Shown here: positions 14,873-57,511 of the stretch, piece after piece
Layout: the number at the start of each line of letters is the position of its first letter
Position numbering within the stretch: the stretch's first letter is position 1
Assembly: GCA_964016885.1 (NCBI GenBank)
Contig: OZ024758.1
Coordinates: forward strand, 24,738,001 to 24,802,000
Origin: Eledone cirrhosa
Lineage: Eukaryota
Direction of reading: 5' to 3'
Length of the DNA stretch: 64,000 nucleotides
Program-made: the position numbers and the translations under genes
The notes under the pieces: model-generated
Databases searched by the model: none
What the model was told of the DNA's origin: nothing
Seen by the model: the letters and a program-made list of their open reading frames with translations, nothing else

Positions 14873-16120
14873 TAGTATATATAGAGTAATGTAAATGGTA
14901 AAGGGTTAAAAGGGAGCCGGAAATAAAAAGGACGGAGGTTATTAAAGGGGAAATTATGTTGAATGTTGGGTTCTTTCTTCATATATTTATGTCTGGACTT
15001 GTTAAACGAGTAAATATAACTATACTAAAACAACCACATACTAGTTCTAGAAACTACTTGTAGTACTACTGTGTGTGTGTGTGTGTGTCCAGTGATGGTT
15101 TGTATATTTGTGTAAGTTATAGGGTATGTGTCTGTCTCTATGTGTGTCTGTGTGTCTGTGTCTGTATTTATTTAAGTTATAGTGTGTGTATGTTAGTGTG
15201 TATATTAGTGTGTGTGTGTGTGTGTGTGTATGTTAGTGTGTATGTGAGTGAGAGAAAGGAGATAGAGAGAGAGAGAGACATTATGTGCGAAAATATATTT
15301 ATGAGTCTGGATGTATATACCTATACATACATTTACGTGTATATATGTGTGTATAGATGTGTGTGTATATATGCGTGTGTGTGGCCATATGTATAAACAT
15401 TTATATACAAGCCTAGGTATGTATTTATCTTTCCATATGAACACACACACACATATCTATATACACACACATATCTATATACACATATACATATATATAT
15501 ATACACACACACACACACATATACACACACATATATACACACACACACACACATATATACACACACATACATATATATACACACACACACATATATATAC
15601 ACACACATATATATACACACACATACACACACACACATATACACACACACACATATATATATATATACATACACACACACATAACTGGTCGATAAGCACT
15701 CAGATAGAAACCATGGTGGTGAAGGTGGTGGTGGGTGGTATTTGGTATGGGAGAAGGAGAGTGGGAAAGTTATAGCAACACACACACACACACACACACA
15801 CATACACACACACACACACACTCACTCACTCACTCACTCACTCTCTCTCTCTCTCTCCAGCGGTGAGGTATCTCTCCAGAGGTGATAGCCAGTGATACAC
15901 TTTAAAGAAAGATCACAGAAGCCAGATGCTTTGACTGCTTTTCACTACCAGAGCCTAAAGATACTATAGTCACTCAGTGTTATATTTTACTCAAATTGCC
16001 GACCATTCGACATGGCGGCATATTAAACTAATGTTTCAGTACATTCACCACTAGTCTAGTATTTAGTATACGACTTTAAATAAAAACGAGGGACGCGGGT
16101 TTAAATATATATATATATAT

Positions 16121-16761
16121 ATCCGGATAAGTTAATTTAGTTATCGCTCGCACTGATTTTAGTCTTTAATGCGAAGAAATACCAGAGAATCAGCAGACTA
16201 CTGATGACGGACTTTTCCTGTTTCTCGGTCCATTTTTATTCATATGTTCAGATTCGTAACAACGCAGCACGCCATTTTTCATTCACATATATTTTCCCTT
16301 CGCTGTGGTTCGTATTTTTTCTGTTACCTTACTGCTTTCCTCTTTCTCTCTCCCCCTTACCCCTTGCTTTCCTCCATTCCCGCTGCTGGTCACACACTCT
16401 CAGCTGGCCCCTTCCTCACACTTTCACTCACTCTCTGTCTCTCTGCTACTCCACCTCTCTCACTTTCTCCCGTCTGACCTGCGTTAATTCTTTCCTCTCT
16501 CACTTTTTTCGTGGCTCGGACTTCTCTGTTTTCTTCTCGTCATTTGATTTGTCGGACTTAAGCCCACAAAATTCATTGACTTGTCCCCCTTTTCCTCTCT
16601 TTACGTTGCATTACTTCCATGGTGTTTGTTCACTTTCCTCTGTCCCGATATCTTAATGTAGTTATCGCTCGCACCGATTTTAGGTATCTAGTCTTTAATG
16701 CGAAGAAATACCAATGAGACTCAGCAGACTACTGATGAAGGACTTTTCCTGTTTCTCGGTC

Positions 16762-16772
<11 letters not shown>
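16121..16772 (+). mobile_element. ~520-bp pyrimidine-rich unit bounded by ~100-bp direct repeats carrying rearranged hammerhead-like motifs (retrozyme/pseudo-LTR-like)
   Basis: AGTTATCGCTCGCAC...ATTTTTATT repeated at ~16139-16240 and ~16660-16772. The body is homologous to ~56910-57355. Flanked by (TA)n. Confidence 0.7.
16668..16750 (+). ncRNA. Candidate non-circularly permuted hammerhead ribozyme (intact copy B)
   Basis: GGTA-T-C (16683-88) | TAGTCT ... GAAA-TACC (16705-12) ... AGACTA-CTGATGA (16726-38)-AGGA-CTTT-TCCT. Stems I and III pair perfectly, but in pseudoknotted order. Confidence 0.6.
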
Positions 16773-16793
<21 letters not shown>

Positions 16794-56423: not shown

Positions 56424-56627
56424 CTTGACTCTGTTTTCCGTTATTTTTCACCGAAAATTTTTTTTGAATACATCTCTTTTCATGATATTCGGATTACATT
56501 GAGTTCTTCATACGGATTGGACACTACCGTACATTTTGGTAGATTTATCTATATATATAAGTGGTTACACAACAGTTAGTTGGGCATGGTAGTAGGGACA
56601 TGTTATGTTCCTAAAACCATGCCCATT

Positions 56628-56667
56628 CCGAGCTGATGATCTGCTAAGGTGAAACAATTGTTCTCGG
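56628..56667 (+). ncRNA. Minimal hammerhead enclosed in a larger structured RNA (56559-56697)
   Basis: CCGAG-CTGATGA-TCTGCTAAGGT-GAA-ACAATTGT-T-CTCGG: perfect 5-bp stem I, palindromic stem III and weak stem II. Confidence 0.7.
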
Positions 56668-57251
56668 TATGGCGAACTAACTGTTGTGTAACCACTTCAA
56701 CCTAACTCGTCCCATGTACTGAGTGCTCTACCACTACGGATATTACCTTCCAATGTCCCACCACTATATATATATATATACATATTAAAATAACAGATTA
56801 CAGTTTAAGCAAAGAATCGCTGCTTTCACCCTTAACGGGTAAGGTGTCAGAGCCTACAGTTTCCATGTATGTGCCACAGAGTGCAAGTATTTGTCACAAG
56901 CTGTGACCTGTCTTTTTCTCTTCCCTTACTGCTATCCTCTTTCTCTCTCTCCTCCTCTTTCACTCACCCCCTCGGTTAGCCTCTTCCTCACACTTTCACT
57001 CACTATCTGCTACTCACCCTCTCTGTCACTTCCTCCATCGTCCCACACCGTGCGAAATTCTTACCGCACTTACTTTCGCATGGTTAAGGAGTGTCTTTCG
57101 TCTTCTCGTCAATATTCGCAAGCTCTTATGTTCAAATGAATCATTAACTTGATTTTCTAAATTTTTCCTCTCTTTACGTTGCCTCACCATTCGTGTCTGT
57201 TTACCTGTCTCTCTTTCTCCACCCAACTCTTTATTTTATTTAGTTATTGCA

Positions 57252-57331
57252 TCGCCCTAGCTTGAGGTATATTGTCTGTAATGCGAAGAAATACCTATGA
57301 TGGCTAGTAGACAACTGATGATGGATAGTCC
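57252..57331 (+). ncRNA. Candidate non-circularly permuted hammerhead (copy C) at the end of a unit homologous to 16240-16772
   Basis: AGGTA-T-A (57265-71) | TTGTCT ... GAAA-TACCT (57288-96) ... AGACAA-CTGATGA (57309-21)-T-GGA-TAG-TCC. Confidence 0.6.
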
Positions 57332-57511
57332 TGGCTTCTATTTCTAATTCTTTATTTTATATATATACAGACACACACATAAATATACACACACACATAT
57401 ATACACACACACTCACATATATATACTCACACTCACACATTATATATACACACATATATATACACACACACGCACATACACATATACACACACACACACA
57501 CATATACACAC

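Follow-up and report, generated by a model that had tools for sequence, protein, structure and literature searches.

A predicted doubly pseudoknotted hammerhead in non-circular block order in a high-copy Penelope-like repeat of Eledone cirrhosa

The window analysed here, a 64,000-nucleotide stretch of contig OZ024758.1 of Eledone cirrhosa, contains a damaged, 5'-truncated copy of a non-coding repeat superfamily with units of 450–800 bp, which inserts at (TA)n and occurs in tandem and inverted arrangements. The copies carry the blocks of a hammerhead core in the non-circular order S-G-C, with pairing maintained among them. We consider it probable, at about 0.7, that the intact copies fold into a doubly pseudoknotted hammerhead that is likely self-cutting and likely copied by a Naiad-type Penelope-like retrotransposon.

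The repeat in the window and in the genome

The window holds three copies of the repeat, A, B and C (Table 1). Exact matches to GCGAAGAAATACC numbered three, with one further match at two mismatches, where 0.57 would be expected at up to two mismatches, so that the motif shared within the window exceeds chance. An earlier description made from the letters of the window alone (the sequence-only reading) had reported a rearranged-hammerhead unit and, 40 kb away, a diverged homolog with compensatory base changes. The letters that it cited were all found in place: TAATGCGAAGAAATACC begins at 16167, 16696 and 57279, and CTGATGA lies at 57315-21. Stem I, TAGTCT/AGACTA in copies A and B, is TTGTCT (57272-77) with AGACAA (57309-14) in copy C, one pair being swapped, and three pairs are swapped between CTGAT/ATCAG (16153-57/16189-93) and CTAGC/GCTAG (57257-61/57303-07). 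The cleavage triplet is AUC in copy B (16686-88) and AUA in copy C (57269-71); the AUC was assigned to copy B because copy A has lost the GGTATC cleavage block through an 8-nt deletion. The diverged homolog is real, but A/B and C represent two subfamilies of a very-high-copy repeat, not independent conserved loci.

Table 1. Features of the three repeat copies; positions are those of the window
Feature	Position	Strand	Description
Copy A	16122..16240	+	Short 3' fragment in tandem, 5' of B; cleavage block absent
Copy B	16235..16770	+	Full unit, 529-bp period, (TA)n at end
Copy B, ribozyme domain	16642-16743	+	Six helix arms all present
Copy B, IIa arms	16642-45 with 16740-43	+	GUCC with GGAC; predicted
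Copy B, cut site	after C16688	+	Predicted
Copy C	56900..57367	+	5'-truncated family M monomer, (TA)n run at end
Copy C, P0 3' arm	57242..57249	+	5' arm gone in copy C; alignment A2
Copy C, IIc upstream strand	57252..57255	+	UCGC, partner GCGA 57283-57286; predicted stem-II equivalent beside G12
Copy C, Pext 5' arm	57257..57262	+	CUAGCU, partner GGCUAG 57302-57307; predicted to join distal ends of stems I and II
Copy C, K-turn	57263..57301	+	Predicted; non-bulged UGA 57263-65; bulge UAU 57296-98; G.A, A.G, U.U 57299-57301
Copy C, block S	57266..57277	+	Stem III strand GGUAU, H17 = A57271, stem I strand UUGUCU
Copy C, cut site	between 57271 and 57272	+	Predicted; in block S
Copy C, block G	57283..57295	+	GCGA-A-GAAA-UACC; from sequence and genome-wide pattern counts
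Copy C, block C	57309..57326	+	AGACAA (stem I), CUGAUGA, one free nucleotide, GGAU (IIa 3' arm)

In BLAST comparisons, copy C was 74–82% identical to other genomic copies over 56900-57367 and 66% identical to unit B. Relative to its closest relative (L085), it shows a deletion of about 11 nt near 57234-57240, which takes out the upstream AUCC arm of helix IIa together with the 5' arm of hairpin P0; judged by its sequence, copy C itself is probably impaired as a ribozyme. The minimum-energy fold of copy B recovered IIa, P0 and IIc, and its extension helix (Pext) is partly decayed. Two contig runs of unspecified kind from one sample, compared with 16110-16790, contained many family variants and tandem joints.

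A search of the window against Rfam at the gathering threshold gave no hammerhead match; the only match was a tRNA-like sequence on the minus strand (42585-42656, 40 bits), which may form the head of a tRNA-derived repeat. An ordinary minimal type I hammerhead was found at 56627-56669 (+), in an inverted repeat about 600 nt 5' of copy C, with stem I CCGAG/CTCGG, CTGATGA, GAAA and a palindromic CAATTG stem III. It belongs to a separate repeat family, also seen in L002, L261 and other loci. About 60 nt past CUGAUGA, GCACGCCATTTT occurs at 16267-16278 (+) and is kept in many family M units; we take it to be a YY1-like site and a possible internal promoter element.

Core-intact copies number over 10,000 in the 3.0-Gb genome. 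A 17-mer gave 1,816 exact matches genome-wide and none in the reversed control, and the S-G-C core pattern (stem III - UH - GAAA - CUGANGA) gave 9,377 exact matches versus one in the reversed control. The 3' end is fixed from copy to copy and the 5' end varies, and head-to-tail or inverted pairs are frequent. Tandem spacings fell within 445–644 bp in 29 of 30 cases in family M and were about 750–800 bp in families W and Y3. A TA run lay within 130 nt in 96 of 119 family M copies, while 21 continued into a further unit and two did neither. With its 3' end fixed at microsatellites and its copies tandem, inverted or truncated at the 5' end, the repeat has the features expected of a non-autonomous Penelope-like element, and a like arrangement is described for Penelope-like elements (PMC8557442). 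No coding frame common to the repeat copies was found among those compared. Pairs of copies spaced 2.9 kb apart were considered as an autonomous form and rejected, as they proved to be duplicated loci with an inserted element. Long ORFs beside some copies (L012/L031, L082, L392, L013) were likewise rejected as partners; they belong to separate C-terminal-endonuclease elements, with type I hammerheads of their own or with microsatellite breaks separating them from the motif. Among 20 further C-terminal-endonuclease elements, none had the S-G-C motif linked to its 3' end. Two loci (L290:1412-1591 and L233) are fold-back chimeras: at a paired arm, the motif runs into a reverse-complement copy of itself, which suggests template switching on structured RNA or cDNA.

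Predicted fold and maintained pairing

Pairing within family M was analysed in an alignment (A2) of 112 copies. Of 136 candidates, 109 passed completeness filters and three were restored (two divergent copies and copy C); the 24 left out were truncated, deleted or false. Six helices were recognised, namely IIa, P0, IIc, Pext, stem I and stem III. The 5' part of the motif runs RUCC (IIa) - P0 hairpin - UCGC (IIc) - Pext - UGA - GGUAU H - stem I, and the 3' part UAA - GCGA (IIc) W GAAA UACC - NAU GA U - Pext - N - stem I CUGANGA N GGAY (IIa). The rearranged-hammerhead reading was borne out by this order, S-G-C, which is not the circular order of types I–III. The CUGANGA/GAAA/NUH core was intact in 101 of the 112 copies, a figure that is inflated because the copies were retrieved by core-containing patterns. 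Variation within the core sat at the free positions N7 (T in 103 copies, C in 8, A in 1) and H17, which was C in 56 and A in 56 and never G, only some of the copies having been selected for H. The base that follows CUGANGA takes all four letters.

Across the 112 copies, 95.1% of cells were paired, versus 22–41% in slid controls and 83.2 ± 2.2% in a tree-aware null, none of 400 nulls reaching the observed level; the null holds the tree and each column's number of changes fixed, the tree was built from the same 120 columns as the structure tests, and the tests lean toward the model because it was derived from those very sequences. The selection on RNA structure that had been proposed from the window is supported by the 112 copies, far more strongly than a pair of copies would allow, but it would have acted on the source (master) elements of the subfamilies and not on the damaged copy C.

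Taken helix by helix, the null reached the observed pairing in 0 of 400 runs for stem I and for Pext, 1 for IIa, 5 for P0 and 13 for IIc; stem III in family M was paired no better than the null (118/400), being 96% paired but invariant. Double changes occurred at 17 of the 33 model pairs, among them three in stem I, which flanks the cut site and CUGANGA as in a hammerhead, and five of the six in Pext, and 12 double compensatory changes mapped to internal branches of the family M tree. Eleven of the 33 pairs ranked among the top 32 of 6,786 column pairs, and no single pair was significant in an R-scape-like test (best E about 0.09). GGAY was fully paired with the upstream RUCC (IIa) in 100 of 112 copies, including a G-C/A-U swap, and all four IIc pairs were present in 89 of 112; no subfamily-level swap was seen in stem III or IIc within family M. 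Unguided folding found IIa in five of six intact representatives and not in copy C, and folding z-scores were unremarkable in five of seven permuted-core copies.

A single stem II running from the A9 arm to the G12 arm is not present in these copies: the two arms are not complementary, and their partners are separate segments upstream. In family M, position 11.1 (before GAAA) is as a rule unpaired. Stem III begins with A15.1-U16.1, as in hammerheads. Stems I and II are linked by 4–5 nt containing UAA, where columns 77–79 are nearly invariant, having been selected in part by the search pattern, and the linker between Pext and stem I is 1 nt.

Parts of the earlier structure had to be redrawn. 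It contained stem I and the extension, both retained here, and had overlooked the UCGC/GCGA and RUCC/GGAY helices with the hairpin between them. What it called an extension of stem III keeps its pairing but is a separate helix past a K-turn-like loop, placed like the stem I–II interaction helix of type SGC. The GGA/TCC hairpin is visible as GGA..TCC in copies B and C, but TCC is not the conserved partner of GGA: the hairpin was strict in 35 of 112 copies, with nulls of 44/400 and 13/400 in two registers, and it is kept here as a possible alternative pairing. We also rejected a partnership between column 15 and the free base that follows CUGANGA, since the partner of column 15 is column 42.

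Between stem III and Pext, the family M loop consists of a 3-nt bulge followed by G.A and A.G, between two helices, which is the sequence pattern of a K-turn. The standard pattern occurred in 79 of 112 copies, or in 94 if A.U is allowed at 2b.2n (A.U stands for A.G in the A/B subfamily), and these columns lay outside the S-G-C pattern used to retrieve family M. The 3b.3n pair was U.U in 68 of 112 copies, as in box C/D. The likeness to the box C/D kink-turn, as set out in the available parts of the reports on it, extends to the 3-nt bulge, the G.A and A.G pairs, C-G at -1 and AUGAUG opposite CUGA (PMC5061560, PMC5689011, PMC4382518). The putative K-turn described here differs from box C/D in lying within a ribozyme stem, and families W, Y2 and Y3 lack its pairs and have a bulge or larger loop instead. 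Box C/D k-turns are reported, in the accessible part of one of these sources, to require L7Ae for folding (PMC5689011).

In the fold that we propose, stems I and III would be ordinary and stem II split. One upstream strand would provide both halves, pairing as IIa with the GGAY after CUGANGA, then forming P0, then pairing as IIc with the GCGA before GAAA, and the A9/G12 end of the core would become one arm of a four-way junction. Pext would connect stems I and IIc at their far ends, and the K-turn, possibly aided by a protein of the 15.5K/L7Ae family, would bend Pext back along stem III and supply the chain reversal that the S-G-C order requires.

Related families and Naiad elements

A genome search for a different 15.2-16.2 pair yielded 388 matches versus 13 in controls, and follow-up searches for families gave 971, 63 and 35 matches with none in controls. 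In seven more families (W, Y1, Y2, Y3, X, Z and V) the block order and core persist, and stems I, III and IIc have new arms, as do IIa and Pext where readable; all catalytic positions are kept across the eight families, whose stems differ. The arms of stem III change together between families (GGUAU/AUACC, GAUGU/ACAUC, AUGGU/ACCAU, AUAGU/ACUAU), and so do those of IIc (UCGC/GCGA, GGCGC/GCGCC, ACGCA/UGCGU, GUGCA/UGCAC). Some families are young, with copies up to 99% identical. In young family W, pairing was 66/72 for IIa, 56/60 for IIc and 67/72 for stem I, and in young family Y2 it was 37/40 for IIc and 40/40 for stem I. In old families the split stem II is poorly paired (IIc of X, 74/111), and IIa of Z (31/58) and of Y1 (27/40) was paired no better than slid controls. 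A looser window-scan swap test supported stems I and III and did not single out IIc in X and Y1, nor IIa in X, Z and V. Family X lacks P0, and family W has a longer linker before stem I (6 nt). In family X (e.g., L219-L229, L251-L270), whose search constrained neither stem arm, the stretch from cut site to GAAA looks far more mutated than that from GAAA to CUGANGA.

A scan of metagenomes with the S-G-C pattern gave at least 117 matches, of which four had five or more stem I pairs and, by eye, none of these four had the flanking helices; we treated these matches as chance. Another tandem repeat of about 525 bp, antisense to an adjacent ORF (L402:2306-2828, L403:2154-2680), has GAAA 5' of CTTCC-CTGAYGA followed by UC-GGAAG and may be a further hammerhead arrangement.

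Naiads are described as lacking canonical hammerheads in the available part of Craig et al., where eight are marked 'HHR_half_core', including Naiad_Ovul and Naiad_Esco (PMC8557442); the absence has been used to suggest that such ribozymes may be dispensable or parasitic. Of the 54 consensus sequences in the supplement of that report, 53 were parsed by eye over their final ~430 nt. Eleven of the 53 3' ends (Bfor, 3_Chem, Amil, Aacu, Anas, 2_Movir, Plae, EuTe, Obim, Ovul and Esco) carry S, G and C together with Pext and the upstream stem-II strand, and they span five phyla, from a ctenophore, cnidarians, an acanthocephalan and a crustacean to cephalopods. IIa and P0 are clear in the ctenophore, the cnidarians and the crustacean, lie outside the view in Plae and fit imperfectly in the cephalopods; Esco has an imperfect IIc as well, and Bfor a stem I of only 2 bp. 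Where the motif is present, the whole arm set lies within about 110 nt. The K-turn sequence appears in both complete Octopus Naiad 3' ends, Obim and Ovul. Six nematode Naiads (1-3_Nbra, Hcon, Hpol and Asuum) showed a clean type CSG with a joining helix, and two more CSG matches are apparently Pristionchus records. SGC and CSG are rotations of one another, and rotating CSG and opening it within block C gives the octopus-type motif. The remaining 36 of the 53 ends fitted neither permuted layout within the stretch viewed. Spider and ostracod Naiads in the same supplement (Naiad_Ptep, Naiad_Smim, Naiad-1/-2/-4_Dst) have CCCC-CTGA(C/A)GA with long flanking helices, a layout that by eye matches neither SGC nor CSG.

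The repeats described here resemble Naiads, as far as the available part of that report describes them, in (TA)n insertion, in tandem, inverted and 5'-truncated copies, and in a sense-strand motif about 90–120 nt from the 3' end; with Naiad_Obim and Naiad_Ovul they share, by eye, the same helices, the TATTTT P0 loop and the K-turn (PMC8557442). Unlike Naiads, they have no ORF and are non-autonomous units of 450–800 bp. No autonomous Naiad was found in the genome among the GIY-YIG matches read, which were C-terminal-endonuclease elements (28 of the best 30 having been translated; 12 with a long frame, 11 of these with an RT-then-EN frame), and a Naiad-specific pattern gave 16 matches versus two in controls, nearly all of them family X. 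Cephalopod Naiads are described as long-inactive remnants in the part of Craig et al. available (PMC8557442). Since some of our families are young, another Penelope-like enzyme may be the present mobiliser.

On the proposed mechanism, tandem or read-through transcripts would be cut after AUH into unit-length RNAs, and about 20 base pairs (IIa, IIc, Pext and III) would keep both RNA ends together, favouring circularisation. The head-to-tail, inverted and 5'-truncated copies would then result from target-primed reverse transcription at (TA)n. Cutting of multimers and reverse transcription have been shown or proposed for type I retrozymes in the portions of two reports available to us (PMC7229834; bioRxiv 10.64898/2026.07.22.740005). 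A scrambled and likely self-cutting core in Naiad-type repeats would explain why Naiads seemed to be without ribozymes.

The fold may instead be real and no longer catalytic, a hammerhead-derived 3' recognition structure for the retrotransposon protein or for a host K-turn protein. The non-contiguous stem II, the unpaired 11.1 of family M and the many Naiads that proliferate without a visible core (the 36 ends above) fit such a structure, but it would leave unaccounted for the keeping of all catalytic positions in eight families and, by eye, in five phyla, with N7 and H17 varying only as the chemistry allows (the absence of G at H17 being in part a matter of selecting copies for H). On balance we regard loss of catalysis as unlikely.

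Another conceivable reading is that the core assembles between two copies, in adjacent tandem units or in two RNAs, rather than inside a single unit, in the manner of minimal Penelope hammerheads; dimer cleavage is reportedly known for hammerheads of Penelope-like elements. Tandem arrays are common here, several families have a near-palindrome, GGAY-N-RUCC, after CUGANGA, and the single nucleotide between Pext and stem I points the same way. Against this, the K-turn or bulge is found at precisely the point at which chain reversal is required of a monomer, family W, with no K-turn, has the 6-nt linker, and autonomous Naiads hold the full arm set in about 110 nt as judged by eye. Assembly between copies therefore seems quite improbable.

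A reading without any selection on RNA, in which the matched changes were inherited as differences between subfamilies or arose when template switching repaired DNA hairpins, is very improbable and is largely refuted by the pairing, the tree-aware null and the arm changes between families: the independent events in family M are few (the 12 noted above) and no individual pair is significant, but the two crossing (pseudoknot) helices covary as well as the nested ones, G-U pairs are tolerated, the unpaired letters of the catalytic core are fixed, and other families and phyla show the layout again with stem sequences unrelated to these.

Relation to known hammerheads and meaning

A self-cutting hammerhead within one unit, our preferred reading, has its closest counterpart in the type-SGC ribozymes (HRIMA-1 and variants), which with a contiguous stem II cleave in vitro and have been reported from metatranscriptomes, none being in genomes of known organisms (PMC10085705). 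The two share the order S-G-C with a complete core, a short stem I–II linker (4–5 nt here, typically 3 there) and an extra helix, here Pext, that joins the other sides of stems I and II (PMC10085705). The three core blocks of the hammerhead, block C among them, have been assumed to be unbreakable (PMC10085705). Unlike in type SGC, block C of the motif described here is interrupted where A9 would meet stem II, and IIa and P0 are placed at this break; the strand of stem II that faces G12 is 5' of block S; and a K-turn sequence follows stem III, in an animal chromosome at over 10,000 copies. From its sequence, the motif would work like SGC and is not a strict member of that type. The broken block C would have hidden it from the descriptor of Eckert et al.

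Metazoan non-LTR retrozymes, for which a Penelope-like origin has been proposed, are likewise non-coding, low-GC tandem repeats with one hammerhead per unit, as described in the available portions of PMC7229834 and bioRxiv 10.64898/2026.07.22.740005. Theirs are type I hammerheads in units of ~170–400 nt, found with type I descriptors, whereas the core here is non-circularly permuted, with no type I hammerhead per repeat, and the units are longer; no permuted core is described in those portions of the two reports. Minimal type I hammerheads of the Neptune/Poseidon kind occur in the same genome at the same target sites, and one such motif, CUGAUGA-A-GGAC..GUCC-GAAA, has the free base and the GGAC/GUCC pair as in IIa. 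They differ from the motif described here in their C-G-S order, hairpin stem II and tiny or palindromic stem III. At least eight type I hammerhead families were present in the loci examined. Near-complete C-terminal-endonuclease (Neptune-like) Penelope-like elements were seen at L031:3779-6140 and L386-L397, some with long open RT-EN frames and with minimal type I hammerheads in the 3' UTR. In the open literature, subscription journals and Repbase/Dfam aside, and including the available parts of PMC13725137 and PMC10162972, we found no prior description of non-circular hammerheads in animal genomes.

More broadly, it appears fairly probable that Naiads and their non-autonomous derivatives carry an overlooked clade of hammerheads in 'mirror order': those of nematodes would be type CSG, and those found from ctenophores to cephalopods a rotation with its opening inside block C and a four-way-junction stem II, the octopus type having its stem III kinked by a possibly protein-dependent K-turn. 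If so, it would add a seventh topology to the hammerheads and would be the first case of a non-circularly permuted RNA present in many copies in animal chromosomes. Non-circular hammerheads were previously known only from environmental sequences, plus one doubtful bacterial case; the repeats described here place a non-circular permutation with a broken block in an animal genome more than 10,000 times. The finding bears on an open point about Penelope-like elements, among which Naiads have been described as lacking canonical hammerheads, and it means that descriptor-based censuses of ribozymes and retrozymes overlook a whole class. If the K-turn is real, the motif would be a natural hammerhead that a host protein could turn on.
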